Shown here in pieces: positions 1,328 to 62,487 of a stretch of 64,000 bases of DNA. Location: positions 224,001 to 288,000 of the forward strand of contig CM000435.1 of the NCBI GenBank assembly GCA_000165345.1. Reading direction: 5' to 3'. The notes beneath the pieces were generated by a model. That model had not been told where the DNA came from. It saw nothing but the letters and a program-made list of their open reading frames with translations, and searched no databases. Each line of letters starts with the position of its first letter. Position 1 is the first letter of the stretch. Position numbers and translations under genes: made by a program.

Positions 1328-2388
1328 CTTTCTCATTCATCAAATTATACTAATTCATTTATACTATTCATTTTATCTTCACAATCGTATTGTCTAGTTC
1401 TAAATATTAATTACTGTTATACCTTTTTCTATTCAAAATAACTCATTTTCCTTTGTTTCTCCAACACCATCTACTCTTTTTATTTATCATAAAATATTGT
1501 TACTCCATTTCTTTATTTTTCAAATTCGAATTCTCAATATTCCTTCTTTTGCTCTGCCTCAATACAGGTTTTATTTGGATTCACACGTATACCGGCATGC
1601 AAGCCCTGCGCTGTCAGACTCTGCATGCATGCGCCTTTCCCCACATATACATCCCAACTCCTGACACGTAGTACTCATCCACATAAAACTTAAGTGCAAA
1701 ATAATAAAAAGCAATAGTGAAAGAAAAAATTAATTTTTTTTTTTATTTTTATATTGGGATTTTAATAGCTAAATTAAGTAGATAGGGCATGGAACAAACT
1801 GATACCAATTATTCCTTATCGCAAATGCCCAATCTTTCATTCAGTAATATCTATGTATCCGAAATGCCTAAATAATTAGCAATTATTCCTTGTACTTTTG
1901 GTATTTGAGCGGACAAAAATGATAATAATAATAATATTTACTGGTATTTTTCTACCACTCGTCCATGCTCATGGTTGTTGAAGAACAGATTACAAATCAC
2001 ATATTTTTATGCACTTGGCGAATTAAAAAAAAAAAGCAATTAAGTGAGATCACCTCTTTCCTTTTCCTCATTTCCTGCTTAATCATGGAAATCTGTAATC
2101 CCAGGGGTCACTGCACCTAATTCAAACTTGTACACATTTTTTTTTTTTTTTTTTGTTCACAACATCAACCATCATGACAGACTATCCTGCATATTACACC
2201 CCCTTATACTGAAAATCACAAGTGTCTCTTCTTCAATTTTCGGGCATCAAGTTAAAAAAATTAACACAATAAACATCACTATTAATTATATCAGTCACCG
2301 CGGAGCCACACTCTTATTCAAAGTCTTATCAGTCAAATTCATATTTCCTTATTCTAATTTTTTTTTTTTTTTTTTCGAGACAAGTCCG

Positions 2389-3249
2389 CTATTTTCGGTA
2401 TCTCTTGCCCTGATATGGGTCACGACTAATCGAATGACTGTGCTCTCTACTTATGCTTCCGCCTCTGTATGGAGACCTACTAACACTTCTTCCTCTTGGT
2501 GAATGATAACTGGGACTTCTGCTTGAATAGCGTCTCTTAGGCCTGTAGTTCCTATCATCATCTCGATAGCCACCTTGTCTCCTTCCACCATAATAATCGT
2601 CTCTATATCTTCCTCCCCTGTAACCATGCTCTGGTGGATAACCTCCAGATGGTCGATGATCATAACGGGATGGAGGACCTCCCATTCTGGGACCTCTTCC
2701 AGAATCTCTTTGAATTCTTCTCATAGTTTCCGGACTCTTTCTACGATCGTGAGCTACAACAACTCTAATAGTGCTTCCGTCCAATAAACTTCCATCTAAT
2801 CTATTAACTGCATCTTGTGCATCTCTTGGGTCCATATATTCCACAAATCCGAATCCTCTAGGTCTTCTAGTATAGTAATCAAGAGGAAGATAGACATCCC
2901 TCACTGGACCATATCTCTCGAAATGGTGTCTTACACGACCGGGAGATGTCTCAAAGCGCAGATTACGAACAAGTAAGCTGCATCCCTCAGATACATCAAC
3001 TTCTGACTTTTCACGGGAACGTGATCTATCCCTCTCTTCAACTGGTTCTCTATTATCTTCATTCCTTCCTTCATTGTTACGTTGTTCATCATCAGATACT
3101 CCTCTTTCTCTTGAAGGGGATTTAGACTCGTCAATCTTTCTGTCCCCTTCTCTATTTTCGTCTCCACCATCATTGTAATCTATATATACTTTCTTTGTCG
3201 AGTTATCACCACCAATCCCATCATCGCCTAACTCTACTGAGAACGTCAT
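2389..3249 (-). CDS. Serine/arginine-rich splicing factor (SRSF10/SRSF2-like): one RRM flanked by RS/RD-rich regions.
   Basis: The RRM segment LLVRNLRFETSPGRVRHHFERYGPVRDVYLPLDYYTRRPRGFGFVEYMDPRDAQDAVNRLDG closely parallels the SRSF10/SRSF2 RNP motifs (VPLDFYTRRPRGFAYV). The C-terminus is an RS domain (RSPSYHSPRGRSVSRSPYRGG). Confidence 0.8.
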   Translation of the reverse strand: MTFSVELGDDGIGGDNSTKKVYIDYNDGGDENREGDRKIDESKSPSRERGVSDDEQRNNEGRNEDNREPVEERDRSRSREKSEVDVSEGCSLLVRNLRFETSPGRVRHHFERYGPVRDVYLPLDYYTRRPRGFGFVEYMDPRDAQDAVNRLDGSLLDGSTIRVVVAHDRRKSPETMRRIQRDSGRGPRMGGPPSRYDHRPSGGYPPEHGYRGGRYRDDYYGGRRQGGYRDDDRNYRPKRRYSSRSPSYHSPRGRSVSRSPYRGGSISREHSHSISRDPYQGKRYRK

Positions 3250-3894: not shown

Positions 3895-3930
<36 letters not shown>

Positions 3931-4948: not shown

Positions 4949-6370
4949 TTAAAACACAATGTTCCCACTTTCTCTTTCTTTAGCAAACATCTCGTAATAC
5001 TGGAAAATGATCGTAACAGCCAGTAAAATACCAGTTCCACTACCGATAGCTCCAAGGAAATCTGCAATTATAGTTAGAGCTCCAATACACATACCACCAA
5101 AGGCAGCAGCAGTGGGGATGTAACGATTTAAAACTTGAACAAGTGAGCTATCTCTGTATCCCTTCATAATCATTTGTTGATCTCTGAGTTGCTTCGCAAC
5201 ATCCTTTGCAGAAGATCCAGATACTTCGATCCAGGTTTTGGAGAAGAGAGCACATGATATTAAGACAAACGAGATGTAGAAGAAGGTGTGAATTGGATCA
5301 GAAACTACATCCACCAAAGAGTTAGGAGGTGAAATGTAGTATGCAATACCTCCAACTGGAATAGATTGGCCACCAACATCAAGTTCTTGCCATTGTCCGA
5401 GAATATTCACAAGCATATTTGATTTGAATCTGCGGTAAAGTAGCTGGGAGAAGAAGTATAGATTAGATACAAGAGCAGTTTGAAGGATAATTGGGATGTT
5501 TGATGTGTAGAAGAGCTTAATTGGGAACGAACCCTGTTGGCCACGTACCTTCTGGTACTTAACAGCAAGATCTACTCTGAATCCTTGGAAGTAGATAACA
5601 ATAAGGAAAACCAATACAGTCGCAAGTAAGTTTGTCATATTTGTAGCGTGGGATCTGTAGAAGGCTTCTCTTAATGCTGAAATCTTATCAGGCTTTGTGA
5701 ATAGAAGATGGAAGAGAGCAATAACTGCACCTTCGAATTCAGTTCCTCTACCGGTATTAATAGTTGTTGGACTAAATGCCTTCCAGACAATAGTTTCACA
5801 GATATTGGTAGCAATAAAGAGTGAAATACCTGATCCAAGACCATAGCCTTTTTGCATGAGCTCATCAAGAAGAATAACTACAACACCAGCAAAGAAGAGT
5901 TGAATGATGATCAAAATTGCATTCCAGGCACCAATTGTTCTAATATCACCATACATACCACTAATAACATATGCAACAGCTTCACCCAATGTGATAAGTA
6001 AGCCAAAAAGTTTCTGTGCTCCTTGGAAAAGAGCTCTATCTTCCTTTAAACTTTGATCAACATCGATGATTTTGCTTCCTGCTAATAACTGCATAACCAT
6101 ACTGGAAGTGACAATTGGTGAAATACCCAATTCCATGAGTGTTCCTCTGTTTGAAGCCAAAATTACTCTAACCCAGTAGAATGGATCCGAGCTTTTGCTA
6201 CTTAAAACTCCGTAAAGTGGAATTTGACAGCATACCAAAAAGACAAACAGAGATATTAAAGTCCATAGGACTCTCTCCTTAAAGGGTACTCTGCGGTCTG
6301 GAGACGATACCTCAGGAATGACGCACAGAGCTGGCTTAATCAAATTCAAAAATCTCAATCCCTTAGCCAT
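4949..6370 (-). CDS. SEC61A: Sec61 alpha subunit (SecY family protein-translocation channel).
   Basis: The 473-aa full-length protein is collinear with eukaryotic Sec61-alpha throughout: [102 protein letters not shown]. Confidence 0.95.
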
Positions 6371-6769: not shown

Positions 6770-8374
6770 TTAAGATTCTTGTTTTCTTGTGTTCTTTTTG
6801 ATAATCTTCTCTAAATCACAGTAAAATGAATTTCTATTTATAGGAATGGTTTTTCTAGTCCTAGTATTTTCCTCTATTATTGTAGCCGGGTTTTTTCTCC
6901 CGTCTCTTCTGGATTTTCTGAATTGTCCATATGATGACATAGGCAATGGTATTATATTATGGTTTGTATTTAAACCAGAAGATAAATCCGAAGGACAGTC
7001 AATTATAGGCTCCCACATAACCAGACATGGCTTAGGATTTTGTCGGATTGGTAGGGTGTTTATTTTGTTAATATTAGAAATCTCAACTTTCTTAAGTTCA
7101 GTCTTTTTAAGTTTTGGGAATGAATTTATAATTGAAATATTGATAATCTTTTCAATATTCTTGAAAACAACCTGCTTGTTATTAAATATCTCTATATCAG
7201 TTTCAGTATACTTTTCTGAAAAACTGTTATTTACTAATATATCATATAAAACCTCACTTTCATCCGGTATGTTTTTTTCTGGTAATGCAGAATAATCATT
7301 TGTTGTATTTTCAAGTTGTAGCTTTAATCTAGAATTCTCTTCTTTGAGATACTGAAGGTCCAAGTTTAAGATTTGGATTTGATCTTTCAATTCCAAGATT
7401 CCTAAATCTTCTTCACGAAAAGTCTCTTGCAGGCTTGAATTATCGCATTTTCTGTTATTCTGGCAATTAATTACTTGATTAAAGTTAGTAATTGGCTCTA
7501 ATTTAAGAGGAGTAATTTTGTTTTCATTTTCTTTTTTAATATTTTCATTTACATATATACATTCTATTTTTTCATCACTCCCAAAATATATACCGAGCTC
7601 ATCCCTTGGAGATTGACACAAACTTTGTTCATTATCTGTTTTTATATATTGTTCAAATTCCTGATCTTGTCCAATATTCAATTCTTGAATATTGATCTGG
7701 GATATTATTTCGTTATTAGTTTTACTCAATTCTTTTAAGTCACACTTTAAATATTCAATCTGCTTTTCATGAGCATAACACAATGCTTCCTTGCTTCTAA
7801 GCTTAATTTCCATCTCTTTAAGCTTGTTTTCTAATTCTCTTGTCTTATCGCTCTTAATTTTATCTAATTCATTATTCATCTCAACATCATACTTTTCGAT
7901 CTTATTTCTATGCTTTGTTAGTCTATTTACACTCCTACAAAGTCTTATTAAACTGCTATTTTCATTAATTTCACTGAGACCTAGTTCATTACAATCCCCC
8001 AGTGAATTTGAAATACCTTCAGAATCATCTCCTCCTTCATTTTCATTCACTACTTTACAATTAACATAACATTTTGTTCCTACTAATGCGGAAGTAAGAG
8101 TCTCCAGACTAATCACTGAATTATCCAATGCTATCAAATACTCATCATCAATATTTTCTTGATTATTTAATAAACTATTTTTTAATAACTCTTTCATCCC
8201 TTCAATAAATTCGGACTTTTTTAAACCCTGATTAATTCTTTCATTTCCACTTCCACACAAATGATATAATTCTAATAGCTCATTTTCAAGGCTGCAAAAC
8301 AGTCCTGCCAACTGAATTGTCACGTTATCTATTCTTTTCACTAAATCCCTTACTCCATCATCAAAATCCAGCAT
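6770..8374 (-). CDS. Hypothetical coiled-coil protein (534 aa).
   Basis: Long ORF in AT-rich DNA with heptad-like Glu/Lys/Leu-rich segments (KLKEMEIKLRSKEALCYAHEKQIEYLKCDLKEL). No recognisable catalytic motif. Confidence 0.55.
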   Translation of the reverse strand: MLDFDDGVRDLVKRIDNVTIQLAGLFCSLENELLELYHLCGSGNERINQGLKKSEFIEGMKELLKNSLLNNQENIDDEYLIALDNSVISLETLTSALVGTKCYVNCKVVNENEGGDDSEGISNSLGDCNELGLSEINENSSLIRLCRSVNRLTKHRNKIEKYDVEMNNELDKIKSDKTRELENKLKEMEIKLRSKEALCYAHEKQIEYLKCDLKELSKTNNEIISQINIQELNIGQDQEFEQYIKTDNEQSLCQSPRDELGIYFGSDEKIECIYVNENIKKENENKITPLKLEPITNFNQVINCQNNRKCDNSSLQETFREEDLGILELKDQIQILNLDLQYLKEENSRLKLQLENTTNDYSALPEKNIPDESEVLYDILVNNSFSEKYTETDIEIFNNKQVVFKNIEKIINISIINSFPKLKKTELKKVEISNINKINTLPIRQNPKPCLVMWEPIIDCPSDLSSGLNTNHNIIPLPMSSYGQFRKSRRDGRKNPATIIEENTRTRKTIPINRNSFYCDLEKIIKKNTRKQES

Positions 8375-9381
8375 TATTTTTAATATTTAATATATTTTTC
8401 CCCCTAATCTTCTCACTATATAAATATCTAAAATATTTGTTTAATCTTTTTAAAAAAAATCGTTATTTGTGTGTTAATTTTTAATATTACGCTGTTTCGT
8501 AATTAATTTTTCCATACAATTTTAAGTGTGTATTTATTTAAACTAAATCAAATTGAATTATTTACATTTTAATGAAAACTGTAGAAATTGGAAATTTACT
8601 TAAACCTATTCAAGCTAAAAAATCCTTTAAAAATGCAACATTAAAAAAATAATACTACTTGTTTATCTACTTAACTATTTCATTCTTTTTTATAATTCAT
8701 ATTGGCATTTTTATATTTAAACATGCATACAAACTCTTTTCCCGCGTACTCTATACCGGCATTTACCTTTATTTTTACATAAATTACGTGTGCAAATAAT
8801 AAATATTTTGACACGTAATGTCAGAAATATTTTATTGAAAAAAAAAGAAAAACTAATGAAGCAAAATTTTTTACATAATTTATGCATCTACTTATCTATA
8901 CTCTATTTTCCTTGCTTTATATTTATTTAAAGTATTCTCTTTTTATCTAATGAACTGAATAAATATAAAGTTAACAAAATTAATGTCTTTACCCTTCCCC
9001 CCACTATTTCTACAAAGGATTAAATGCATATCTGCATGCATACATGCAAAATCAATATTTGAATTCCAAATAGTATCAAATTTATAAAATGCTGAGAAAT
9101 GAAACAAAATAACAATTAATTGAAAATAATATAACATTAATCGCCTTATTAATAAGCTGTCTAATCTACATTTAACTAAAAAAAAAAAAGAAATAATACT
9201 TTTCCACTCTTTTCTTTGAAAGAAGCAGAACAATCGTGTTAAATTTAAATATAAATAGTAATAATATTAAAATAGTTGGTTGTATATTGTTTATTGTCAA
9301 AAAGTTAAAATTTTGTTACATGAAAATTATATGGAATTTTATTTCCCTTTCTGGATCAAAGTGTATGTATTATAGATATTT

Positions 9382-12829: not shown

Positions 12830-15800
12830 TTACAATTTCTTTGGAACCAATTTTGTCTTTACAGTAATTTTTGCTACTGTTTTTGGTTGTATTAAATTAG
12901 TCTTAATCTCTATTTTCTTTGGCATTGCAACTTTTACATTTGATAAATCTAATTTAGCTCCCAATTTAGCTCCAGGTACTAATGGTTTTGGTACTGCACT
13001 AACAGGTTGAGGTGACTTCATCAATACTTTTGATTGAGGTAAAGAAGATGATAATGATGTATTATTTGAATTTGAAGTAGTTTTCAATACTAATTTCTTT
13101 GTAGTAGGTTCTGGATTCTTATTTAATAAAACTAATTGTTTTGGTGAAGCTATATTTGCACTTATTTTCTTTAATTCACTACTCTTAGCCGTTAAATCCT
13201 TCTTTGGTAGAGATTTTGAACTTGAAGTTATTGAATTTGAATTCAAAGATGATAGTGTAGAAGATAATGGTAAACCTAATTTTGCTGGTGATTTGGATAC
13301 TTTACCACCGTCTTTAACTGATGATTTACCTTCAGATTGTTTTGGATTTAATAAACTTGAAGACTTTCCACTTCCCAAAATTGAATTGCCTTTAAGTGCC
13401 ATCTTACCATAATTATTAAATCCAACTTTACCTGCTGATTTATCTTTTTTAAACATAATCTCCATATGATCTTTTCTTTTCTTCATAATTAATTCTTTTA
13501 GTTCTTTTATTTGGAAAGTATCCATATTTCCTTGAGTATATATTGTAGAATCTGAACCTATTGAATAATTTCCACAATAACCTTTCTTCATTACTATTGG
13601 CTCCAAATATCCTTTTCTAAACAAATATTCATGTTTATCTTCAGATTTATCTGATAATTCCAATTCTGGAATACCTCTATATTCTTTTTTTGGTAATGGC
13701 AATTCTAAATCAGGATCATCATGATTTATATCATAAATCTTCTCCTCTATTGTAAGTTTCTCTAATAATCTCTCAACTCTTTGCATTATATGAGACCATA
13801 ATTCCTCAGTAGATATCTTATCTTCTTCTGATAAAGAAGAATACCATAATCCTTGATTTAATAAAGCTTCATTTCTTAATTTTAAGAAATCATTCCATGT
13901 AGAATTTAATAATTCAAAAGGTGTAAATCCATTTGCATCTCTTTGTGTTAACATTGGACTTATATCATATACACTATTTAAAAATGATATTATATCAAAA
14001 CAATTCTTCAATCTTGTTAACATTTCTCTTGGTGAAATATATAAAAACTCTGCTATTGGAGTATGTATTGGAATAGATAATATTTTTGTTGAAGAATTAT
14101 TTCCAAATCCTGTATTTGAAGTACCCATTGAATATATATAAGTCTTTAAATCTTTATTATTATATCCATTATGTGATATTAATGGTAAATCATTCAATTT
14201 TTTTGGTAATTGAAAACTCAATGTTGTATTACAACATAATCCTAAAGCTAACATATGTAATGCATTCATTTTAAGTGTATCTGATCTATGACTTAAATTT
14301 GCACCTTTTTCTAACAATAAACGTACTGTTTCAAATTTTAAACCATATATTCCTAATAATAATGGAGTATTCCCCTGATAATTTTCTTTATTTATTTCAC
14401 TTCCATATTTTAATAATATTTCCACAGTCTCTATATGACCTTCTAATGAAGCTAAATGTAATGGTATTGCTAATTCAATATTCTCAACATTTGGATCTGT
14501 ACCTCCATGTATTAATTCTGAACATAAAAATTTTCTACCTTTAAAAGCTGCAATATGTAATGGTGTATTAGATCCTAACCATTTTATTGTTTTACCATAT
14601 AATAATTTATATCTATTAGAACCCCGCTCTGGCATTTTTTCCCCTGATTTACTGGCAAATGCATGTTTTTTTCGAATGCATGCATTCGCCCCCAAATGCT
14701 CGCCATTATCCTCAGAATTTTCTTTTTTGTAAGTTTTTGAACTTTTTTCCATATCCAAGGCAATTGCTTTACGTATCATATCTCTGGCTATTATTGCAGA
14801 TTTTTTATCATTTTGTATATCAAGACTTTCTTCTTCTAATTCTGGATATGTACATAAAGCATGTATTGGTGTAATACCATATTCATTTTTAAAAAATAAA
14901 TCAGAACCTTCTTCTAATAATAATGCACACACATCATCTCTTAAATTACTTGCAGCCATTCCAAGAAGATTTAATCCAGTTGGTAAATAAGTTACTTTAT
15001 TTAATAATATATCTTTAACCTGACCAACTAATAATTGAGCAATACCCATTAAATGACCTTTAATTGAAGCAATAAATAAAAGAGCACTATATTCAGATAA
15101 AGTTGAAAGATAATCAGCACTTTTTGAAATAGTACTATTACCAAGAATTTCACGATTAAGATTAGAAAATAAATCAATAGAAGCAATACGAATTCTCATA
15201 TTACTTGGTGGTGTCATAACTCCCAAAATGGATGAATAAAGGCGCATTCTTGATAAACAATAATAATAAATTGGACTTTTTGGTCCATAACATACCATAC
15301 TATTATATAAAGATAACCAAGAGCATTCCATAATAAGATCTTTGGAATTATTAAAAACACCTCTTTGTGAGACTTTTTGTATCATTTCTTTCTTGTAAAT
15401 AATATCAGCCAGATTAAGAAATAAATGAACTTTTTCATGATAACAACTTGGAAATACTTTATTTGATGAAACAATGATTGGCTTACAGTATTTATAAGAC
15501 ATTTTAGAATCATTTGAATTTGAGAAATTGTATAAACCAACAAGATGGGATCTAGAGTTATATATTAAATAATGATTATTATGGGTAATAAGGGAAAAAT
15601 TATTAATGAATTTTTCAAAAAGTTTTCTAGCTTCAATATCTTTTCCATCATTAAAAGAATTGATTGCTAATTTATAATGATTTTCCATTTTTGAAACCAA
15701 TTCATTACAACAAGTATTTATTTCATTGGAGAATTCACCACAGTTACTACATTTCCATTTAATTTGTACTTCACCAGATTTACAATTAATTCTGGCTCTT

Positions 15801-17512: not shown

Positions 17513-17963
17513 TTCTTCAATTTGATTATGGTTAATATACCTTTTTTTCTCTGGTAATAATAATTCATATTATTAAAATTAACAATAATATAATATAATT
17601 ATAAATTTCCGCTTTATAAATTCAGGAAAACATAAATCAGCTTTTCATATTCAGCCAAGTAGTATGCATTTGGTCAGCTTTAATTATTTAAATTATTGAT
17701 AACGATACAATCTCAAAAAAAACTGATGAGATAAAAAAAAATAATGATAAAAATAAAAATAAAAATAATATGGTAAGATTTATTAATTACGATTGAATTT
17801 CCCTATTTAATGGTCTATTTTGTTTCGTTGTCAACATATTACATGCATTTACCGGTCATTAATAGATCCACATAAATGGCGCCTGATTTGGGAGATGGTC
17901 ACCCCACAATATCGGGTGGTGCATGCAATATAAGTAAACAAGTTGGATAAATTTAAAGAAAAG

Positions 17964-20612: not shown

Positions 20613-38111
<17,499 letters not shown>

Positions 38112-41972: not shown

Positions 41973-42091
41973 CAGAACTTCCCCAACCTAATCACCTTTT
42001 TTATAAATTCAGTTTCACTCTATATTACTTTAAATCTAGTTTAAAAAAATTCCAATTTTCTTCTTTGACATTATAATCTCTACATGACTGT

Positions 42092-42121
42092 GCCGCCAAA
42101 AGTACCGGTACTTTTGGCGGC
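42092..42121. promoter_or_regulatory. Perfect 30-bp palindrome GCCGCCAAAAGTACCGGTACTTTTGGCGGC in the IMP3 / SNAP50 divergent promoter.
   Basis: The reverse complement is identical. Each arm carries an E2F-like TTTTGGCGGC half-site and the centre carries the recurring TACCGGTA motif. It lies 120 bp upstream of IMP3 and 180 bp upstream of SNAP50. Confidence 0.6.
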
Positions 42122-42303
42122 ATTGTTTTTAATTTAATAAATCATAAAAAGATCCATGGCAAAAAAAAGGAAAAAATTAAAAAATTGAATTGATTGAAGT
42201 TGATAGAATTGTGAGAAAATGGCTGTTTGAATTTGAAACTCTTTATTTGTTTTTTTCTTTCACTGAGTATTAGAATTTTATGATAAATATTTACTGAATA
42301 ATA

Positions 42304-45220: not shown

Positions 45221-45274
45221 TATATACCGGCGTACACGTAATTCCTGCATATACCGGTAATAATACCGGTATAG
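45221..45274. promoter_or_regulatory. Three ATACCGG[CT] motifs within 54 bp (TATACCGGCGTACACGTAATTCCTGCATATACCGGTAATAATACCGGTATAGG) in the acyltransferase / LSm2 intergenic region.
   Basis: The same TACCGG[TC]A core recurs at about 1590, 8756, 17852, 42103, 48219, 57250 and 61971, always intergenic. Confidence 0.4.
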
Positions 45275-45732
45275 GCAAATATTGAAATTAATAAAAAACG
45301 AAATAAAAAAAAATTTATATATTATTAAATATAATATATTAAAAGAATTCAATGCTTTTAGCCAACTATTCATTGTCTTTTATTTGATTTTATTTGAAAA
45401 AATGGTAAGTTTATTTGTTGGTTTTGGTCATAATATTATTGGTCATATTACTCTAATGGGAAAGGGATTATATTATATCGATTTTACAAAAACAAACTAT
45501 TGTTATTAATATTAATATTATTATTATTATTATTATTATTTATTCCCACTAACTTTTTATTAAATAACAAATTATTATGAAAGGATCTAATATCAATTTC
45601 ATATTTGGTTGAAGATGGTATCAAGTAGAATCAAATACATATATAATCGAATACATATATAATTGAATCCCATATATAATCAAATCAAAAATACTTGGGA
45701 TTAGAACAAGTGGGACCCCAAGCTTTCATTAC

Positions 45733-45830
45733 TCTTCTTTTTCCTCATCTTCTTCCTCCTCTTCTCTTTCATCCCCCCCCCTCTTCCTCCTCCTCTTCTT
45801 TTTCCTCTTCTCCATTAAGAGTTTTGACAC
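45733..45830 (+). other. About 100-nt CT-rich polypyrimidine tract upstream of LSm2.
   Basis: ctcttctttttcctcatcttcttcctcctcttctctttcatcccccccctcttcctcctcctcttctttttcctcttctcc is atypical for the AT-rich background. It could be a promoter, 5' UTR or intron element. Confidence 0.4.
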
Positions 45831-45926
45831 TACCAACCAAATTTTTACATTTAACTTTTAATTAATTGAAATTTTTCTATAAAGCTATTTTTTAATTTTC
45901 TACAAACTCTAATAGAGAAACAGGTA

Positions 45927-46193
45927 GTGGTAACAGTGGAGCTCAAGAATGATTTACAAATAACAGGAACTTTACATAGTATTGATCAATATTTGAATAT
46001 AAAGCTAAATAATACAACAGTAAATCAAAACGAGAGTTTTATTCATTTGGGATCTCTCAAGAATTGCTTTATTAGAGGAAGTGTTGTAAGATATATCTTC
46101 TTTCCTCCTTCTGAAGTGGATATTGAACTTCTTCAGAAAGCTTGTAGAAAGGAGTTAAGAAGTATGAATGATTGCAAAGAAAAGCAAAAGTGA
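45927..46193 (+). CDS. LSM2: U6 snRNA-associated Sm-like protein LSm2 (main exon). The 5' exon is unresolved and an intron is likely.
   Basis: VTVELKNDLQITGTLHSIDQYLNIKLNNTTV...LKNCFIRGSVVRYIFFPPSEVDIELLQKACRKE matches human LSm2 (VVVELKNDLSICGTLHSVDQYLNIKL...VKNCFIRGSVVRYVQLPADEVDTQLLQDAARKE). The track start is a GTG with no in-frame upstream ATG. A cag acceptor with a pyrimidine/AT-rich tract lies immediately upstream. Confidence 0.85.
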   Translation: MVTVELKNDLQITGTLHSIDQYLNIKLNNTTVNQNESFIHLGSLKNCFIRGSVVRYIFFPPSEVDIELLQKACRKELRSMNDCKEKQK

Positions 46194-46575: not shown

Positions 46576-47637
46576 TCAAGTAATTATTAATGATTGAAGT
46601 TTCTCTGAAAGTGAAAGTTGAACTCTTGTTAGTTCTGTCAAACATCCAATAATTAATGCATCTTGAGTAGAATTGCTTTTAATGATATTATAAATATTAT
46701 ATTCAAAATCATAAATAGAATGAATAGCATAATCAATTTGTCTTCCTATCATTGGATCCATAGAAACTTCACCAGAAAGTACTTTCTTTACATAATTCTG
46801 ACATCTCTGAACTAGAAGAATAAGTTTTGTTAATAATTGAGAAACATCACCAGATTGTAAACTATAATTTGAATTATTTAAAGGTAAAACTGTACATATT
46901 TCATCCTCTGGACCAAGAATTGTTCTAGGAAGACTCTTTGGAGGAATTCCTACAGCATTTAAATGATGTTTCTCAAGTAATGGTCTTAAAATTCTTGAAA
47001 TATGAAGTCTTTCACATGGACTTGCAACAATATCTAATGGAATTGGTCTAAAAATTGAAACTATAGAATTTGTCCATGTTGATTGAATTTGAATATATCC
47101 ATTAATAGATAACTTTCCATTTGAAAATGAAGGATCCACAACAATATGAATAGGCTCAGATAATAATGGAGTTTGTTGAAATTTTGAACTACCAATATCT
47201 GTCTTAAACCAATTATTCACTGCACAACTTACTGAATTAATACCAGAACATGTACTATACCATCCAATAACCTGCAATCTAGAATTTGTCTTTTGTTTTA
47301 ATTCAAACATTGTCTCATGAGTATCTATCATTATTGAAAGCATACCATCATCTGTAAATGAATGTCTATCTACAAAAGAATCTGTTACTATAACATTCCC
47401 ACCTTCATTTATGTATCCTAATAAAGTTCCTATCACATATTGATGTCCTGATTGTCTTCTTAAATGAGAATCCAATATAGATAATATAACCAATGGATTC
47501 ACTCTACAACTTATTATTGATGGTTTTGATAATGAATCAAAAGTCAAATTTGTATCTGATAAGTGTGAAATTAAAAATCCATCACTTTCACTAATAATGT
47601 TATTTTGAGCACAATATATTGACATTATTATAACCAA
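46576..47637 (-). CDS. EIF3F: Translation initiation factor eIF3 subunit F (MPN domain).
   Basis: [30 protein letters not shown] matches eIF3f [36 protein letters not shown] is the MPN core. [21 protein letters not shown] matches [20 protein letters not shown]. The C-terminus [19 protein letters not shown]...[18 protein letters not shown] matches YAEDVLSGKVSADNTVGRF...LANLTQSQIALNEKLVNL. Confidence 0.85.
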   Translation of the reverse strand: [353 protein letters not shown]

Positions 47638-48813
47638 ATTTTCTTTATTATCACTTTATTAATAATTATAAGAAAAAGAATAATTTCTATTATTTTCAAT
47701 AAAGTCTGACTTATTTTATTTTCAAACCTTCTGATATGTAATATATATTATAATATCACTTTCTTTTGAGAACTTAAACTTTTTCTATTAAGATATAAAC
47801 AGAATTAAAAAAAAAAAGAATTAAATGAGATCTTAAACAAGCTCTATCAATATCCCTTTTTTTTTAATTAATTAATTTTTTTTTTTTTAATTGTTATTTC
47901 CCTTGTGATTTCTTAATTTATATTTTACCTCCTTCCAAATATTCCAAGTCTTGTATATTTTGACTATAATTTAAAAATTTTTTTCCCCCTTCTTTCTTCT
48001 GTTATTCTAATTCTTTTACAAAATAATTAATTATTATTATATTAATATTTACCATAATTCACTCATCAATTTCTACTAATATTAAATATAACCCTCAATT
48101 TACCGCAATTATTCATTTTTTTTTTTGTTTCTTTTTAATTAAATTTATTTATTAAAAAAAAAAAACGCGCTCAATAATTCTGTATATTTGGCAATATGTA
48201 CCGCCTAAGCGAGACGCCGGTACTAATAAATCTACATTAACTTTATTGAATTTAATTCAAATCAAAAATAAAAAAAAAATAAATAAATTAACTACTCATC
48301 TTTTTTAAATAATTAAAATTATATTTTTTTTTATATTACAAAAAAAAATTATTTTTATGTAATATAAAATTTAACACGTAATTATCAAAAATATTAATAC
48401 TGTTAATAATGTCAATACAACTAGAATAATCTTAAGTATAATTTATTCACCAATATAAAATTCTACATGCAGTTTTATTTATAAATTTTAATAAACCCTG
48501 ACAAACCTTTCTAACTTAATTCTCACTAATTACCCCACATGTGATTTAATGTACATGTAAATCATATACTCATGCACCCCTCCCATGCACTTTTTTCTCC
48601 CGCCTAATCACATGCACTTTAATATAAACATTTATCTTTTCTCTTCACACCTATCCCTACCCCCACCACTAATTCCCGCAATAAAACTGAAAACTAGCTA
48701 CTTTTTATTTTACTAATATCAACTTGTGTTAATAAATCTATAAATAACATTATATTCACTCTCTATTTATCACACACTAACACACTGTATTATGTTTATA
48801 TATAAATATATAT

Positions 48814-55029: not shown

Positions 55030-56769
55030 TTAAATTGACAAAAAATGTACTTTTGCAGACTTCATATCCTCGGAAGGGATCAGAATGGCAGGGACTTCTC
55101 CAGTTGAAAGAGAGGAAATTTCTGCAGAATCTAGAAATTTGATTTTAACCAAAATTGGGGAATGAGTAACTTCTGAGCTGTTAGTAAATTGACTAACTTT
55201 TGAAAAAAATCCTTCAGATGGAACCACATCTGCGACGTTCTTAAAATAGTCTAAACAGTTTATCTCATCCCTCTTTTTTTCTGAAACAATACTTGATGGC
55301 GGACAATTATGTCCTGTGGCTGAACCACTATGATTATCAGTATTACAGTTAAATAAGCTATTGAGCATATGCCCAGGAGAATGTTTTAAAACCTGATGGT
55401 TTTGAAGCTTGTTATTTAATACTCCTCCAAGAAAATCATCGCCAAAACTCAAATCTGAGATGTTAGAAACCAAAGAATTTGAGCTATCCTCCATCCGTTT
55501 CAAGGAACAAAATGAAGATAAGTCTGTTTCATTTGATCTTAAGTCCAGAAGCTGCTTTTCAGAGTCGTCATCTTGGAACCTATTTTTAATAATACTGGCA
55601 GAAGATAATCCAGGATCCTTATCAAGACCAACAAGGCCAAAAATGTTGTCTTGAGACGTATTCAATTGATCACTCTTAGAGTTAGAGTCCCAACTTCTTA
55701 AGTTATTAAGAGATGAAGAACCCCTAATACACGGAACATTTGTAATATCGCTATTTTGATTATCATGGAAAGAATTAAACTGGGGTGGAAGAGGTTGAGG
55801 TTGAGGATGTGAATGGTTTTGTAAGTTAGGATGAGATTGAGAATTTGAAAAGCATTCACCTTTTCTGAAAATATCATCACAGCTGTAATTCCGCTTCATT
55901 CTGTGATCTCCCTCACCTTCTTGGTCAATATATCTCAAAATTGGCGGTAAAGTTTTTGCTTGTATTGATTGAGTATTAAATCCCAATCCTGTTCTAGAAT
56001 TTGAATGAAGATTTGAATGTGAGTGTGATTGTCTCATTTTTCCTAGTGAAGAGACTGGTTGTCCTGAGCTTGAGTATACTAAAGGAGGGGGAGGAGGGAC
56101 TTGAAATAGAAATCGGCTATTTTCATTAAATTTGTTGCTCCTTAGTGGCAGAATTAGATCATCTTCTCGTATTGAAGGCGGAAGTTGATCATCTTTTCGT
56201 CTAAGTAAATGTTTGTTTGTCTTTTTTCTAAGCTCTGCCTCTCCATGTGCATGTCTACACAAAACTCCAGCATCGCATTTAACACCCATCTTCCAGTATC
56301 TACATACTGAAGTCTTATAAAAGTCATTAGTAACTCTAAGTTCAGTAGTACCGTGAGCAAAAGGACAATTCTCTCCAATACTGCAAGCAGAACTTAACCA
56401 AAATGGGCATAATTTAGTCTTTTTTAAGTTTACAGGAGTCCTTAAATCTTCACTTCCATGGGCAAACCTACAATTGTCTCCATTTTTACAAGCTCCTTTT
56501 GAAAACATCAAACAAAGCTTTGTCTTCCAGTATTGATTATGAGACTCCTCGCTTCCTTCCGTATCAACGTCAGCTGTTACAGAGTCATCTTGGCCATCAA
56601 ACCTACTTCCCAACGTATTGTTTCCATCAACCCCACCAGAAACTAAGCTTTCTATTATTCTCTCTCCATTATTCCTTGTTAAGTTTCCATTCAAGCCACC
56701 CAATGATATCATTGATGGGATTGGCTCAGTGGAAACGCCATATAAATTTGTGTTAAAAGCGTTATCCAT
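55030..56769 (-). CDS. Tandem CCCH zinc-finger protein (three C-x8-C-x5-C-x3-H fingers) with a long Ser/Asn/Pro-rich C-terminal region.
   Basis: KLCLMFSKGACKNGDNCRFAHG, KLCPFWLSSACSIGENCPFAHG and SVCRYWKMGVKCDAGVLCRHAHG. Confidence 0.8.
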   Translation of the reverse strand: MDNAFNTNLYGVSTEPIPSMISLGGLNGNLTRNNGERIIESLVSGGVDGNNTLGSRFDGQDDSVTADVDTEGSEESHNQYWKTKLCLMFSKGACKNGDNCRFAHGSEDLRTPVNLKKTKLCPFWLSSACSIGENCPFAHGTTELRVTNDFYKTSVCRYWKMGVKCDAGVLCRHAHGEAELRKKTNKHLLRRKDDQLPPSIREDDLILPLRSNKFNENSRFLFQVPPPPPLVYSSSGQPVSSLGKMRQSHSHSNLHSNSRTGLGFNTQSIQAKTLPPILRYIDQEGEGDHRMKRNYSCDDIFRKGECFSNSQSHPNLQNHSHPQPQPLPPQFNSFHDNQNSDITNVPCIRGSSSLNNLRSWDSNSKSDQLNTSQDNIFGLVGLDKDPGLSSASIIKNRFQDDDSEKQLLDLRSNETDLSSFCSLKRMEDSSNSLVSNISDLSFGDDFLGGVLNNKLQNHQVLKHSPGHMLNSLFNCNTDNHSGSATGHNCPPSSIVSEKKRDEINCLDYFKNVADVVPSEGFFSKVSQFTNSSEVTHSPILVKIKFLDSAEISSLSTGEVPAILIPSEDMKSAKVHFLSI

Positions 56770-57074: not shown

Positions 57075-57261
57075 TTTTTGGCGCCCTTCTGAAATCCTTT
57101 TTTTAATATCTCAGAATTCTTTTATCGGCAAATATAAAGAAAAAAAAATTTTACTTTAGGCAAATAATTTTTGATTGTGCGCGCCATTCGCCCCCCACTT
57201 TTGAGCGTGATAATTTTTTTTGGCTCCAAATTGAATTTTGCCCAAATGCCGGTACTAATGA
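57075..57261. promoter_or_regulatory. Cluster of GC-rich motifs in the CCCH / bromodomain divergent promoter: TTTTGGCGCCC, GCGCGCCATTCGCCCCCC and GCCGGTACTAATG.
   Basis: Three GC islands within 190 bp of otherwise AT-rich spacer. TTTGCCCGGGAAAA follows at about 57290. Confidence 0.4.
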
Positions 57262-57785
57262 AAAAAAAAACATTTAAAAAAATTTTGATAAATTTGCCCG
57301 GGAAAAATTAGCTCAAGAATTTCTACGTAATAGGAAATTAACTGTGGTAAAGATAGATCCTCCCAGAACAAACCCAGTATAAAAGTTCTCAATTCATTTA
57401 GGTGGGGTCGCTTTTGTCTATATTTGAGCTTCATCTCTGTAGGGGAAGTTAAAGCTACCCCTAAAGATTGAAGCTAAAGATTATTATTGCCAAGACTGAG
57501 ATTTTGCCAAAATACTGTGGAATATTTAAATTAATTGTTCACTATCAAGTTTCAAGAACAAAGGAATTCATCATTATAAGATTAATATTTTTGTTTATTC
57601 TTCTCTCGGGTTTATATTCGTTCTTTCAGTGCTAAGCAAGCTTTATGCCAAAACCAAAATCTTCCGGTACCAAGTGCTAAAGTCTCAGATTTGTGAACTT
57701 TGCAAGCCCATTTGGGTTTTTCCCTGCCTACTACCTGTAAAACTTCCAGGCCCTGGAAAAACTTTGATTAGAGTTACTATCTGAA

Positions 57786-60700
57786 ATGAATGAAATCTTG
57801 GAGAATAAAATTACAAATGGCAACCCAGTTCCTAACTCTGATGAGGAGAGATCCTTGGGAATAGATCAAGAGTCTTATTCAGAAATTTCTGCCCCACAAA
57901 AACCTAAAATAGAGGGAAAAGAAGAAACAGGATATGGCCAAGGCCTAAACAAGGAACAAGATCAGAACCTAGAGCAAGATCAGGAACAAGATCATGTACA
58001 AGAACAAGATCAGGAACAGGAACAGGAACAGGAACAGGAACAGGAACAGGAACAAGATCAAGATCAAGATCAAGATCGTGAACAAGAGCAAGATCAGGAA
58101 GGAGCAGCCAGCGAAAGAATCGAAGGAAAAACCTATAGTCAAAAGACGGATGGGGACGCCTCTTCTGTTGTAACACAAACTAGTCAAAATGCGGTATCGG
58201 AAATTCGTATACCGAGAGGGAGAGGAAGACCTCCAAGAAATGCGAATAGAGCAGATATTGGTCCATCTGGACTAGTTAGTATAACTTCAATCTGGGCAGA
58301 CGATGATAAGCCTAAAGGGAAGAGAGGTCGCCCAAGACTCCGTCCTTTGGAGCCAGAAGAGAAAGTTGAGCCAGAAGCAGCTCCTAATAAGCCTCTAAAA
58401 GTGAAACGTCCAAAGGGGCCGAAGGACATTATGTATGAAATCATCCATAGACTTTACAAAAGAGACAAACAGCAGATCTTTGCGGAGCCTGTTAATGCTG
58501 AGTTTGTTCCAGATTACTACCAAGTGATCAAAAACCCTATGGACTTCTCTACTATGAGGAAGAAAGTATCCCAAGATGAGTACAAGGATTTTGATTCATT
58601 TGTTGATGATATTAAGCTGATCATTACTAACTGCTATACATATAATAAAATAGGTACTATGGTATATAGAATGGGATTGATTTTGGAAGAAACTTGGGAT
58701 AAGAGTCTAGAAGGGAGTAGGGCTAGATATGAGCAATCCATAAAGAATGTTGAGGAATACGAAGAGAAGAAGAAAGCTGGTGAGATTATTAGTGACTCTG
58801 AGCCTGAGTCCCAACCAGTCTGGAATAACACTCCCACATCTCCTCCAACTGTGGAATCGCCAAATTCATCTAATCAAAGGTCAATGGTAACCAGAAGAAT
58901 GGAAGCTAGGCTTTCAAGCTCACATTCACCCTGGATATCTAAAGGAAGTGGAGGACCTGGTGCTATAGGTGGTTCTTCTGGAGCTGGATCAGGAATTCCT
59001 GGGGAAAGAGATTCAAGCACAGGACCAGATTTTATGAGTAGAAGAGCCTTAGGAGGGCACCCATTTGGAGGCTCCATGGCTTATAGGGGAGGAGAGCTTG
59101 GAAGGCATCCGCCATACCCAGGAGGAGTCCCTGGCCAAGTTCACCAAAATACTAAGCCAAAAGGTCCCACTCTTGCGGACATTTGTAAAGGAGGTGTGAC
59201 ATCAATCAAGGAAAATCTTGAGAAGCTCAAGATTGATAGATTTGAACCATTCAATTCTTTAATTAAACAACTAGCAACTCAGCCATGTATCAGAACTCCT
59301 ACTGTAGATGACTGGTATGTCTTTGATAAGCAACTTTCTGAGATCCAATACCGTAATTCTGTTAAGAGATTTATAGGAGATGATAGTATTCAAGCTCTGA
59401 AGAAAATCATGGATATAGAAACTGCACTCTTGGAAATTGATCCTCATCCAGCTATTTCCAAACTCCCTTTAAGTGACACTAGACTTCTTGGAATAGATAC
59501 TGATGACTTTGCCCCATTCAACCAGAACCTATCAGTAGATGGAAGCTTTCTTTTGGGAGTTGGTGATAACCACATTAAAGTTGCACTAACACTCCAAGAT
59601 GAGGTTCCCTCCCTTGACCTTACTCCCCTAAAAGAGCTCGTAACAAAGTACACTCAACATCCTCTCTCCACACAATCAAATGGCGCGAGCGCCAATATTT
59701 CACAGGGTCCCTTCCCTAACTCTTCTGGAGTCTCAGTGAATGGCGTTTCTGCAGGTGCTGGAGCCGGATTAGGGGGCGGAGTTGGATCAGGAACTGCCCA
59801 CATTGGTTTTCCAAAACCCTCTCTTGGAGGAGGAACCAATCAAGGAGGCCTTCACGCGTCACTCTCTCACTTACAAACCAGCGAGACTAAGCCCGAACTT
59901 CCTCCTTCCCAAAGGCCAGCTATGGCGGGTAATGAAATCAAAGGCCAAGATCTTAAGTCTATGCATTACAATGGATTTGGTGTTCATCGAGGAGAGGTAT
60001 TGCCAGGCACTACAGAAACCTCTGGTGTGAGTAACGTCCCTCTTTCCCAAGTAGGTCAGACCCACGCTCATGGGAGAATTGCTTACAAGCACGGATATCC
60101 CCCATCCTTAGGATCTGGCCCTGGATCAGGGACAGGATCTATGCCCATATCTATGCCTGTTAGTGGAACTCCTGGAAAGCCGAGTGTCCCTGGAACTTCC
60201 GGAGTAGGAAACTCAAACAGCTATTATGAAGTTTGTCCTCCAGCTAAGGTCCAAAAGTTTGAGCAATCTCATTATCCTACTCATAGTGGTGCATCCCATG
60301 CGTTCCCTTCTTCTCACTCAGTTATACCGCCACATTCAGTGCATACAGTGCATCCGACTCAGACTTCGGCTATCCCTAAACAAGGAGTGCAAGCAACAGC
60401 TCCTCCCAGTGGTGGTAATAAACCTGGTGTCCCTTTGAACTATAATCAAGTTCATGGGCGGGGGATACAGCATGGAGGTCAAATGCATGCGCAAGGGCAT
60501 GGTCCGGGAGCTGGGCTTGGACATTTAAATGGGCATCGTATACAGAGTACCAATTTAGTAGCAAATCCCACAAACTCTAACAATGTTTCTCCTGTTAGTG
60601 TTGGAAATAATACAAATCAGAATATGAGAGTCTCCGCCTCGAGTCCTACCGCTACCACCTCTACTAGCAATGCTCACTTGAGTGTTAATTTGAATATGGC

Positions 60701-61844
60701 TTCTAATGCTGCTGCAACTACTACTAATGCTTCTGTTTCTGCTAACTCTATCTCAACAGCTCAAACAGCTCCCATCAACTCTACTGCAAATATAGCATCC
60801 GCCAATACTGCTAATAATACAGTCAATACTCCTTTGGGTAATTTTGTTCCAAGCTCCGTTGTTCCAGGTTCAGCTGTAACTACTGCCTCTATTAGTGGAG
60901 GTAGTAAAATGAATCATATTGGCAATGTACCGACTTCAGCTGCAGCTGCTCCTACAAATTCTTCTTCCATCTCACCAACTGCCAATGTTTCAAATATTCA
61001 ATACTTGAACAGTAATGATGTTCGTAGAATCTCTGATAAGTTAAACTACTCTCAAAATATGATGGGAAGCCAAGTCCATCACCAGGGACATCTCGTAAAC
61101 AGGACTCATGTTAGTAACCCTGGTAGCCATTACCTTCAAATGAACGCAAGTTCAGGAAATCATATTGGTGCTGGAGCTGTAGGAGCTGCGATGGTAACAA
61201 ATACTAATCAACGTATAGATCATGCAATGAGTGGTAATATTGGGCAGCAAAAGGTCATAACTAGTGGCTACATCCAAAATAATGAGTACATGGCACGGGG
61301 AGCAGACCCAAATGTAGGTGGTGGTACTAATAACAGTACCACCAATAAAAATAATAATAGTGGCAATAGTGGCAATATGTATGAGTTGTACCAGCATAAT
61401 GCTAAGAAACCAGAAATGCCCATTGATATTAGGGAGGAGCGGGCACGTCTGGACCAGAATATGTATATGGTAGAAGGTATGGGAGTAAATGGAATGAATA
61501 TGAGGTCTCGTCAACAAATACTACAAATGCAATCGCATCAGAACTCAGTTAAGCCACCCCACTACCACCATCAGTATCCCCCTCAGTCGCAGATCCCTAT
61601 TCACAAGTCCCATGTAAATAATGGAAACGTTTCCAATGCGAACGGAAGTAATAACTTTTATCAAAAATATAACAATAACACTACAAACAGCAATAGTAAC
61701 ATTCAATATCATAACAGAAATATCTCACCAATGGGGCAAGCATCTTCCAATATCCCTAATATTGCCAATCCCATAAACAATTTGACTAGCGGAAGTTCAC
61801 AATATCCGCAAGATGGGATTAATCACCTTGGACAAAAAAAATAA
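57786..61844 (+). CDS. AT-hook and bromodomain-containing chromatin protein (1,352 aa) with an N-terminal (EQ)n/(DQ)n repeat and a long Gly/Ser/Asn/Ala/Thr-rich C-terminal half.
   Basis: AT-hooks RGRGRPPRN and KRGRPRLRP. Bromodomain IFAEPVNAEFVPDYYQVIKNPMDFSTMRKKVSQDEYKDFDSFVDDIKLIITNCYTYN (ZA-loop P..DYY...NPMD and BC-loop N.YN). Hexanucleotide repeat (CAGGAA)n/(CAAGAT)n at about 57988-58078. Confidence 0.85.
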   Translation: MNEILENKITNGNPVPNSDEERSLGIDQESYSEISAPQKPKIEGKEETGYGQGLNKEQDQNLEQDQEQDHVQEQDQEQEQEQEQEQEQEQDQDQDQDREQEQDQEGAASERIEGKTYSQKTDGDASSVVTQTSQNAVSEIRIPRGRGRPPRNANRADIGPSGLVSITSIWADDDKPKGKRGRPRLRPLEPEEKVEPEAAPNKPLKVKRPKGPKDIMYEIIHRLYKRDKQQIFAEPVNAEFVPDYYQVIKNPMDFSTMRKKVSQDEYKDFDSFVDDIKLIITNCYTYNKIGTMVYRMGLILEETWDKSLEGSRARYEQSIKNVEEYEEKKKAGEIISDSEPESQPVWNNTPTSPPTVESPNSSNQRSMVTRRMEARLSSSHSPWISKGSGGPGAIGGSSGAGSGIPGERDSSTGPDFMSRRALGGHPFGGSMAYRGGELGRHPPYPGGVPGQVHQNTKPKGPTLADICKGGVTSIKENLEKLKIDRFEPFNSLIKQLATQPCIRTPTVDDWYVFDKQLSEIQYRNSVKRFIGDDSIQALKKIMDIETALLEIDPHPAISKLPLSDTRLLGIDTDDFAPFNQNLSVDGSFLLGVGDNHIKVALTLQDEVPSLDLTPLKELVTKYTQHPLSTQSNGASANISQGPFPNSSGVSVNGVSAGAGAGLGGGVGSGTAHIGFPKPSLGGGTNQGGLHASLSHLQTSETKPELPPSQRPAMAGNEIKGQDLKSMHYNGFGVHRGEVLPGTTETSGVSNVPLSQVGQTHAHGRIAYKHGYPPSLGSGPGSGTGSMPISMPVSGTPGKPSVPGTSGVGNSNSYYEVCPPAKVQKFEQSHYPTHSGASHAFPSSHSVIPPHSVHTVHPTQTSAIPKQGVQATAPPSGGNKPGVPLNYNQVHGRGIQHGGQMHAQGHGPGAGLGHLNGHRIQSTNLVANPTNSNNVSPVSVGNNTNQNMRVSASSPTATTSTSNAHLSVNLNMASNAAATTTNASVSANSISTAQTAPINSTANIASANTANNTVNTPLGNFVPSSVVPGSAVTTASISGGSKMNHIGNVPTSAAAAPTNSSSISPTANVSNIQYLNSNDVRRISDKLNYSQNMMGSQVHHQGHLVNRTHVSNPGSHYLQMNASSGNHIGAGAVGAAMVTNTNQRIDHAMSGNIGQQKVITSGYIQNNEYMARGADPNVGGGTNNSTTNKNNNSGNSGNMYELYQHNAKKPEMPIDIREERARLDQNMYMVEGMGVNGMNMRSRQQILQMQSHQNSVKPPHYHHQYPPQSQIPIHKSHVNNGNVSNANGSNNFYQKYNNNTTNSNSNIQYHNRNISPMGQASSNIPNIANPINNLTSGSSQYPQDGINHLGQKK
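57988..58078 (+). repeat. Coding hexanucleotide repeats (CAGGAA)n and (CAAGAT)n encoding (EQ)n/(DQ)n.
   Basis: caggaacaggaacaggaacaggaacaggaacaggaacaagatcaagatcaagatcaagat. Confidence 0.8.
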
Positions 61845-62487
61845 AATTAGCTCTAATTAGTTTATAGTTTTAATTTAAGGTTATTATAATTTGTATTGCA
61901 TGCATGTGTATAATTTTCTCATGTTTTTTTTTGCTATTAGATTACGTGTTAGACTACTTGCATGTAAAAACCGGTATTAATGATGTTGGCGCCCACAATG
62001 CCATGCATGCCGCCTGTTTGTGTGGTTGGAAAAAAAATCAGTAAAGGATTATTTGCAAGATAATGGAAAGAAAAGTTACAAAAAGAGAAGATTGGATATA
62101 GTTGAGAAAATTTGAGGCAAAAAAACTAATAGAGGGATATTGTGGAGGCTTTAAATAATTAGAACTTGAGTTTGTTAAATATATTTATTTAAAGGCTTTA
62201 AGTGGATTGAATAACATTCTCAGTCTGGCAAGGGGCTGAGAAGAAGAAATTAATTTAGCAAGCAATTTTATCAGGAAGATTGGGTTTATTTGTAGTATTA
62301 GAAATAGTAGAGTGAGTAGTAGAAGTATTGGTGGTTTTTGAGTAACAATTGGATAAAGTAAACGTAAAGAGAGCCAAGCAGTTGAAGATATTAGGTTGAA
62401 TTAGCAAAAAATACAAGTTTGAAAAGGAAGGAAAGAATTATCATGTAATGATATCTGGAAATTTCAAGTTGAATTAAATAAATAAAT

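Follow-up and report, generated by a model that had tools for sequence, protein, structure and literature searches.

TACCGG[C/T], a predicted promoter-region binding site in the intergenic spacers of Cryptosporidium parvum and related species

Introduction

Cryptosporidium is a leading cause of childhood diarrhoea. A 2025 review of its gene regulation recognizes six over-represented families of upstream words, namely AP2_1, AP2_2, G-box, E2F, GAGA, and CAAT-box, and most of the predicted Cryptosporidium transcription factors are given there without a known site. Here we examine another short word, TACCGG followed by C or T, in a 64,000-nucleotide stretch of C. parvum DNA (NCBI GenBank assembly GCA_000165345.1, contig CM000435.1, positions 224,001 to 288,000 of the forward strand), which is referred to below as the window. 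Judging from the sequence comparisons reported here, TACCGG[C/T], with its fixed core ACCGG and its frequent extension to the palindrome TRCCGGYA, is a predicted binding site of a sequence-specific factor in RNA polymerase II promoter modules of the group that spans C. parvum to C. felis, and this is a reading that we hold with good, though incomplete, confidence.

Among the described motifs, the Cryptosporidium E2F/DP motif ([A/T][C/G]GCGC[G/C][A/T], for example TGGCGCCA) shares several features with TACCGG[C/T]. Both are short GC-core words in AT-rich spacers that are often palindromic, occur on either strand, and are conserved. E2F words are also physically adjacent to TACCGG in five of the eight regions that carry it, and they flank one of the sites on both sides (CCGG core at 42105). 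The two words differ in their cores (CCGG compared to GCGC), and E2F has both assigned factors and support from the assay for transposase-accessible chromatin with sequencing (ATAC-seq). TACCGG matches neither the E2F/DP consensus above nor TTTSSCGC. The ApiAP2 word AP2_1 (TGCATGCA), like the G-box, AP2_2, GAGA, and CAAT-box, resembles TACCGG in being over-represented upstream of genes, and TGCATGCA is also an 8-bp palindrome. However, CCGG is absent from the primary specificities published for the AP2 domains of C. parvum, and no match of TACCGG to TGCATGCA, G.GGGG, or GCACAC was found.

A CCGG-core motif was absent from the Cryptosporidium catalogues compared here, which comprise the 2007 de novo, 2010 heat-shock, and 2013 genome-wide studies, the long non-coding RNA (lncRNA) and ATAC-seq preprints, and the 2025 review; the chromosome 6 paper of 2003 stood outside this comparison. 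Within the 2013 genome-wide study, the motif was found neither among the 25 motifs nor in the supplementary tables. The text of the AP2 binding-array paper (Oberstaller 2014), in which the logos are given as figures only, does not mention a CCGG core, and no CCGG-core motif was encountered in the text of the Plasmodium and Theileria motif papers examined. Literature matches to ACCGGT, TACCGG, CCGGTA, and TACCGGTA were primer sequences only. A preliminary description of this DNA, which had been prepared from the sequence without database searches, had likewise named no described element with this core, in agreement with the Cryptosporidium motif papers and the 2025 review. Earlier motif searches were directed at motifs specific to co-expression clusters or at the top three motifs in accessible chromatin, and this may be why a broadly distributed word was missed. 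We regard TACCGG as an orphan cis-regulatory motif and not as a new kind of system.

Results

Over-representation in intergenic spacers

The window, which has a G+C content of approximately 29%, was divided with a gene map drawn from long open reading frames (ORFs), gene calls at orthologous loci, and one coiled-coil ORF that leaves the window. The map totals 50.1 kb (50,108 bases) of coding and 13.9 kb (13,892 bases) of spacer DNA, and dinucleotide shuffles of those same sequences served as the null. In the spacers, TACCGG[CT] was found at ten distinct sites, corresponding to 13 strand matches compared to 0.45 expected (0/2000 shuffles reached 13). In the coding DNA, it was found at one palindromic site, or two strand matches compared to 0.65 expected (37/300 shuffles reached this count). 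The word is over-represented approximately 29-fold in spacers and shows no excess in coding DNA over this composition-matched null, and the preliminary observation holds within the window. TACCGGYA gave 11 strand matches where whole-window shuffles led us to expect 0.25, and CCGGTAYTAAT gave four matches compared to 0.02 expected from shuffles.

When aligned on their cores, all ten spacer sites read TACCGG and then C or T, and six of them fit the palindrome TRCCGGYA (Table 1; sites are named below by the first base of CCGG). Each was located within 1-3 bases of where the preliminary description had placed it. Its accompanying statement, that the motif lies in spacers and never in coding sequence, held for all ten of these sites and failed for one further occurrence, TACCGGTATTAAT, inside the Sec61-alpha gene, which fits both of the patterns that it had proposed (TACCGGYA and CCGGTAYTAAT). 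Outside C. parvum, this coding occurrence was found in C. tyzzeri and chipmunk genotype I alone; C. meleagridis, C. ubiquitum, and C. canis lack it. Because it is missing from the distant species despite the conserved protein, it looks like a chance coding occurrence and is probably not part of the element.

As a check against cherry-picking, all spacer 6-, 7-, and 8-mers were ranked against a second-order Markov expectation. TACCGG (14 observed compared to 1.3 expected) came third among the 6-mers that are not of low complexity, behind CATGCA and GCATGC, which represent the already described AP2 word TGCATGCA; the E2F word GGCGCC ranked lower. The sequences flanking different sites were also compared, and their identity (median 0.32, maximum 0.48) was that of the null (median 0.32, 99th percentile 0.46). 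Flanks of different sites are therefore no more alike than random pairs, which indicates that the sites are not copies of a repeat, and a dispersed repeat or mobile-element remnant was rejected.

Conservation among Cryptosporidium species

Two proteins of low conservation served as anchors for fetching the orthologous loci of C. tyzzeri, C. meleagridis, chipmunk genotype I, C. ubiquitum, C. canis, C. felis, the Logan run SRR31860986, and C. xiaoi, and the gene order was the same at all of them. TACCGG or ACCGG was encountered at equivalent positions in almost all loci, even at 50-53% G+C. The loci from SRR31860986 (L010) and C. canis (L011/L015) have a G+C content of 42-53% compared to approximately 29% in C. 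parvum, and it was noted that islands of ACCGG and E2F words survive this large compositional shift within the genus.

Fifteen orthologous spacers, of which eight carry the motif, were aligned together with the seven motif-free ones among them across five to seven species, and each 5-mer was scored by the share of its C. parvum occurrences that are identical in all species. ACCGG/CCGGT was the top 5-mer, above GGCGG, GAGAC, ACGTA, GGCGC, and GCATG, being fully conserved in 8 of 15 aligned occurrences compared to a background of 3.1% (binomial test; P = 4e-9). The alignments of such fast-evolving spacers are imperfect; the conserved islands are evident by eye. Over the ten sites, per-position identity was 96-98% for A-C-C-G-G, 77% for the preceding T, and 50-85% for the outer flanks. 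The base after the core (position +4) alternates between C and T among species, which looks like the tolerated degeneracy typical of a protein-recognition position. The core ACCGG was retained in 45 of 49 orthologous instances outside C. parvum (manual count from the instance list), some orthologous variants read TAACCGG, and turnover was seen as extra sites in other species. Two internal controls were not conserved: a CCGGTA at 57664 reads CCTG or CCAG in other species, and three species have lost the Sec61 coding site. The motif sites themselves stand out as short conserved islands in drifting spacers.

The individual sites illustrate this pattern. At site 1592, which adjoins ACACGTA and GCATGCA, ACCGG is kept in all five other aligned species. 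Site 8756 has a conserved E2F-like TTTTCCCGCG approximately 17 bp away and is kept in four of six other species, including C. felis, with losses in C. meleagridis (TCGG) and C. canis. Around site 17852, a block of approximately 50 bp with CATGCA and GGCGCC is near-identical in five other species, again including C. felis. The word CGAGACGCCGGTA, which contains site 48217 and is found 400-580 bp upstream of the JAB gene across species, is identical in six of six species within a spacer whose mean identity is only 0.48. Site 57249 is kept in four of four other species, with C replaced by T in C. ubiquitum. Site 61971, which has GGCGCC at 15 bp and ATTACGTGT at 27 bp, persists in chipmunk genotype I and C. 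ubiquitum; it has been lost from C. meleagridis (CCGA) and SRR31860986 (CAGG).

Two of the spacers hold compound arrangements. Upstream of the 347-amino-acid (aa) gene, three copies of the motif occur in six of six species, with spacings of 27 and 12 bp in C. parvum and of 11-15 and 25-27 bp in the others. The first copy, which is followed after 2 bp by ACACGTAAT, is kept in five of five other species with a variable C/T as its next base, and the second is likewise kept in five of five. In the IMP3/SNAPC3 spacer, ACCGG of site 42105 is kept in five of five other species, and the order E2F-ACCGG-E2F is seen in all six aligned species. The two E2F-like arms together with this site form a 30-bp perfect palindrome in C. 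parvum. In the other species each arm still fits the E2F consensus (GGCGCC, GGCGGGAA), and the arms are no longer mutually complementary. A structured RNA or DNA hairpin at this palindrome was considered and rejected, given that the arms diverge to non-complementary E2F variants and that no Rfam match was found. A scan for bacterial promoters and terminators flagged the same palindrome as terminator-like, a result that has no relevance for a eukaryote and that the absence of compensatory changes contradicts.

Gene arrangement and neighbouring words

The motif is present in 8 of the 20 spacers of the window, comprising four of the five divergent, three of the eleven tandem, and one of the four convergent ones. 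Six of the ten sites lie between divergent genes, and in the four divergent spacers the motif stands at 35-47% of the spacer length. A gene 5' end is found on at least one side of nine sites, with 1592 as the exception, and no consistent distance to stop codons was seen. The nearest ATG is usually 340-580 bp away, except in the IMP3/SNAPC3 spacer (133 and 199 bp). Both orientations of the motif are seen, without a consistent relation to the direction of genes, and a rule of orientation toward the downstream gene was not significant among the three informative tandem cases.

E2F-like sites were found within 50 bp of the motif in five of the eight regions and within 40 bp in four of the eight (P ~0.004 compared to random spacer positions). 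TGCATG/CATGCA words lie within 40 bp in four of the eight regions, as do ACACGT words. All three types, E2F, AP2_1, and ACACGT, are closer to the motif than to random spacer positions, and these neighbouring words are also conserved.

Two of the neighbouring words were noted in their own right. The first, of the form ACACGTAAT or ATTACGTGT, has ACACGT at 1583, 1664, 8786, 8811, 45234, 48374, and 61944, which amounts to seven spacer sites and none in coding DNA, each within approximately 160 bp of a TACCGG site. An ACGT core suggests a bZIP-type site. ACGTA was fully conserved in 5 of 16 occurrences and is among the top conserved 5-mers, and the ACACGT-type word is missing from the Cryptosporidium motif lists examined. 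The second, GAGACG (48209-48216), is fused to site 48217 and identical in six species, and GAGAC/GTCTC is the third most conserved spacer 5-mer (four of seven occurrences, in four regions). This GAGAC word resembles GAGWCA and VYGTCBC, which appear as 'Unknown set 1' in the genome-wide study of 2013.

Gene map and other conserved features

The coordinates of the sites and of the genes around them are collected in Table 1.

Table 1. Motif sites, associated words, and genes in the 64-kb window
Feature	Position	CCGG start	Strand	Context
TACCGGC	1590..1596	1592	+	convergent (3'-3') spacer between seipin and SR-protein genes; 263 bp past seipin stop codon
TACCGGC	8754..8760	8756	+	382 bp upstream of 534-aa gene ATG
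TACCGGT	17850..17856	17852	+	340 bp upstream of SET/MYND/ankyrin gene ATG
TACCGGTA palindrome	42103..42110	42105	either	divergent IMP3/SNAPC3 spacer, 133 and 199 bp from the ATGs
Two inverted E2F-like arms GCCGCCAAAAG / CTTTTGGCGGC	42090..42123		either	flank the 42103-42110 site
TACCGGC	45225..45231	45227	+	first of three copies, 347-aa gene / LSm spacer
TACCGGTA	45252..45259	45254	either	second copy of triple cluster
TACCGGTA	45264..45271	45266	either	third copy of triple cluster
TACCGGC	48216..48222	48217	-	580 bp upstream of JAB/eIF3f-like gene; fused to GAGACG
TACCGGC	57248..57254	57249	-	divergent CCCH/bromodomain spacer, 480 and 537 bp from the ATGs
TACCGGT	61970..61976	61971	-	127 bp past bromodomain stop; ~500 bp upstream of coiled-coil ORF
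Look-alike TACCGGTATTAAT	5749..5761		either	within Sec61-alpha coding sequence
SR-protein/RRM gene	2389-3249		minus	
Sec61-alpha ORF	4949-6370		minus	
534-aa gene	6770-8374		minus	
SET/MYND/ankyrin gene	12830-17512		minus	
5,832-aa single uninterrupted ORF	20613-38111		minus	
IMP3	41421-41972		minus	
SNAPC3	42304-43623		plus	
347-aa gene	43710-44753		minus	
LSm gene	ORF in window begins with GTG at 45927		plus	
JAB/eIF3f-like gene	46576-47637		minus	
396-aa gene			plus	1086 bp from the 48216-48222 site
CCCH zinc-finger gene	55030-56769		minus	
Bromodomain gene	57786-61844		plus	
Coiled-coil ORF	start near 62470, leaves window		plus	

The proteins of the window are typically eukaryotic and include Sec61-alpha, an SR-type RRM protein, SYF1, IMP3, SNAPC3, LSm, a JAB/eIF3f-like protein, and a bromodomain protein. 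The Sec61 ORF is identical residue by residue in several NCBI Cryptosporidium assemblies, and the first 16.4 kb of the window are 99.99% identical to CP044416.1 (GCA_015245375.1) and 97.6% identical to C. tyzzeri, which identifies the DNA as C. parvum, chromosome 7 in the IOWA-ATCC assembly. Whole-window scans for Rfam families and tRNA genes gave no match, and the motif sites therefore do not belong to known RNA genes. The 5,832-aa ORF has a C. canis orthologue with matches to DUF3638 and DUF3645 and a faint EF-hand match, and its stop codon adjoins that of a convergent 353-aa gene with zero spacer.

Three further features concern gene ends near motif sites. The orthologous gene models of LSm are spliced and extend upstream, and the model of chipmunk genotype I (L008 16343-17488) spans the triple TACCGG cluster, which leaves the LSm 5' end uncertain relative to that cluster (window 45300-45926). 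At 57600-57785, four species share a conserved stretch of 120-190 bp ahead of the annotated bromodomain ATG (57786), with a coding- or untranslated region (UTR)-like pattern; the true start of the gene may lie further upstream, or a conserved 5' leader may precede it. Downstream of the SR-protein gene, a block of approximately 650 bp (1720-2388) stands out from the neighbouring spacer by its far higher conservation. It hardly differs among C. parvum, C. tyzzeri, C. meleagridis, chipmunk genotype I, and C. ubiquitum, and most of it is shared by C. canis. It may be a 3' UTR through which the SR gene regulates itself, as is known from other eukaryotes, or a non-coding RNA missing from the annotation that the motif cluster at 1583-1670 would drive. 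The block matched no Rfam family, including in a permissive scan of 1300-2450.

Discussion

Taken together, the enrichment, conservation, degeneracy, context, and position of TACCGG[C/T] indicate a DNA-level protein-binding site in promoter regions. Three generic features of cis-regulatory words were found for it, namely over-representation in spacers, orthologous conservation with degeneracy, and upstream clustering with regulatory motifs. The preliminary description had left open a promoter, terminator, or origin-like element, and of these the promoter role fits the divergent sites, the co-clustering with E2F and AP2_1, and the conserved islands, whereas the terminator and origin roles are not supported. 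A candidate factor would recognise TACCGGY as a single subunit, or as a dimer where the site is palindromic. It would work together with E2F/DP and AP2 factors in promoter hubs, often bidirectional ones, where its binding might help to open or activate promoters. We infer both the binding of a protein at the motif and its effect on transcription.

Several observations weigh against this reading. All results derive from one 64-kb window and its orthologues, and orthologous sites are not independent new loci. The bias toward divergent spacers is no more than suggestive (Fisher exact test; P = 0.058). The spacer of site 1592, which is a conserved site, is of the 3'-3' type and has no annotated 5' end close by, and the usual distance of 340-580 bp to an ATG is far for a compact genome with a mean spacer length of 504 bp. 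In the distant C. xiaoi, the two testable orthologous spacers lack ACCGG. Lastly, motif discovery in sporozoite ATAC-seq data reported only E2F and poly-T motifs.

The protein that would bind TACCGG[C/T] is probably of the Myb type or the ApiAP2 type, a lead drawn only from resemblances between sites. Myb-type sites include YAACGG of c-Myb, CACTGG of Toxoplasma BFD1, and TTACCCG of the Myb-like yeast Reb1. The word examined here shares with them the six-base pattern nAC.GG or ACC(C)GG and stands one base from the Myb element TAACGG, but most instances lack AAC, the defining core of classical Myb sites. A further likeness is to the plant dehydration-responsive element/C-repeat (DRE/CRT), TACCGACAT, which is bound by AP2/ERF (DREB) proteins, and in Apicomplexa the AP2-domain proteins form the main family of transcription factors. 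Three sites in the window read TACCGGCAT, one base off the plant element, which we treat as a lead only; the element here has G in place of A at the sixth base and is often palindromic. The Grainyhead/CP2 site, AACCGGTT, is a palindrome with the same ACCGGT centre, but its flanks are A-A where those observed here are T/A-A, and the Grainyhead/CP2 family is not known outside animals and fungi. As further leads within Cryptosporidium, the 2025 review counts 16 Myb-domain proteins without known sites and lists four AP2 proteins as not binding DNA in arrays; cgd6_4510, cgd3_2510, cgd3_1120, and cgd5_110 are Myb proteins predicted to bind DNA.

Other explanations were weighed against the same observations. 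A general regulatory or boundary factor like yeast Reb1 would hold a gap free of nucleosomes, set neighbouring transcription units apart, and stop read-through in this very compact genome rather than activate specific genes. This possibility, which we judge unlikely, would suit a motif so common (8/20 spacers), its central placement in divergent spacers, its reading on either strand, and flanking genes without an obvious common function. The two tandem-spacer sites that lie only 112-127 bp past an upstream stop codon and the conserved site in one convergent spacer would also be accommodated, and the sequence resembles the Reb1 site. However, 12 of the 20 spacers are without the motif, including most of the tandem ones, where insulation would be most needed; a boundary factor is in any case a sub-case of protein binding, which sequence alone does not separate from an activator. 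A role at the RNA level appears improbable; the motif would then be transcribed as part of long 5' UTRs, of upstream exons, or of non-coding RNAs missing from the annotation, and would bind proteins or form structure there. Although the motif-bearing spacers measure approximately 1-1.7 kb compared to the genome mean of 504 bp, a chipmunk genotype I gene model of LSm spans the triple cluster, and site 1592 adjoins the ultraconserved block of approximately 650 bp, the motif is palindromic or lies on either strand with no consistent orientation. Moreover, the arms at 42105 keep the E2F consensus and not base-pairing, with no compensatory changes, no Rfam family matched, and the conserved core is of 5-7 nucleotides only and sits among known DNA-level transcription-factor motifs.

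We consider it very improbable that the word serves as a signal for termination or polyadenylation, as a replication origin, or as an element of centromeres. A gene 3' end does lie on one side of four of the ten sites, 112-626 bp away, and recurrent GC-rich islands in AT-rich spacers could mark origins, but six of the ten sites are in divergent spacers without any 3' end, only one of the four convergent spacers has the motif, the Cryptosporidium polyadenylation signal is reported as A(A/G)TAAA, and no link of the sites to replication was found. As for centromeres, a preprint describes the C. parvum CENH3 sites as a GA-rich repeat motif mostly in coding regions. A holocentromere link was rejected on this published description, which is unlike a CCGG word in spacers, the comparison being one of descriptions. 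That the pattern reflects chance, base composition, or the remains of a dispersed repeat has, in our estimate, a probability close to nil. The motif definition was indeed picked by eye from one window, but no shuffle among 2000 reaches the observed count, the motif emerges in unbiased k-mer and conservation rankings, flank identity has the null median of 32%, and 45 of the 49 orthologous instances are retained.

Returning to the promoter-module reading, its broadest form can be offered only tentatively, and we think it rather unlikely. The factor might be a general regulator specific to this lineage, either of a Myb/Reb1-like kind or an 'orphan' ApiAP2 protein, that would mark approximately one third of the spacers through TACCGGY, at about a thousand sites genome-wide, and together with E2F/DP would set shared nucleosome-free hubs that start bidirectional and polycistronic transcription. 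If true, this would be a third pillar of promoter architecture in Cryptosporidium, overlooked by twenty years of motif searches.

In this region TACCGG is at least equal to the E2F and AP2 words in enrichment and exceeds both in conservation. CRISPR (clustered regularly interspaced short palindromic repeats) editing and reporter assays are now used in C. parvum. The motif would offer a handle for finding a missing regulator by means of a short probe for affinity pull-down or protein-binding arrays, and it may be useful for promoter annotation and for the design of minimal bidirectional promoters for transgenes.

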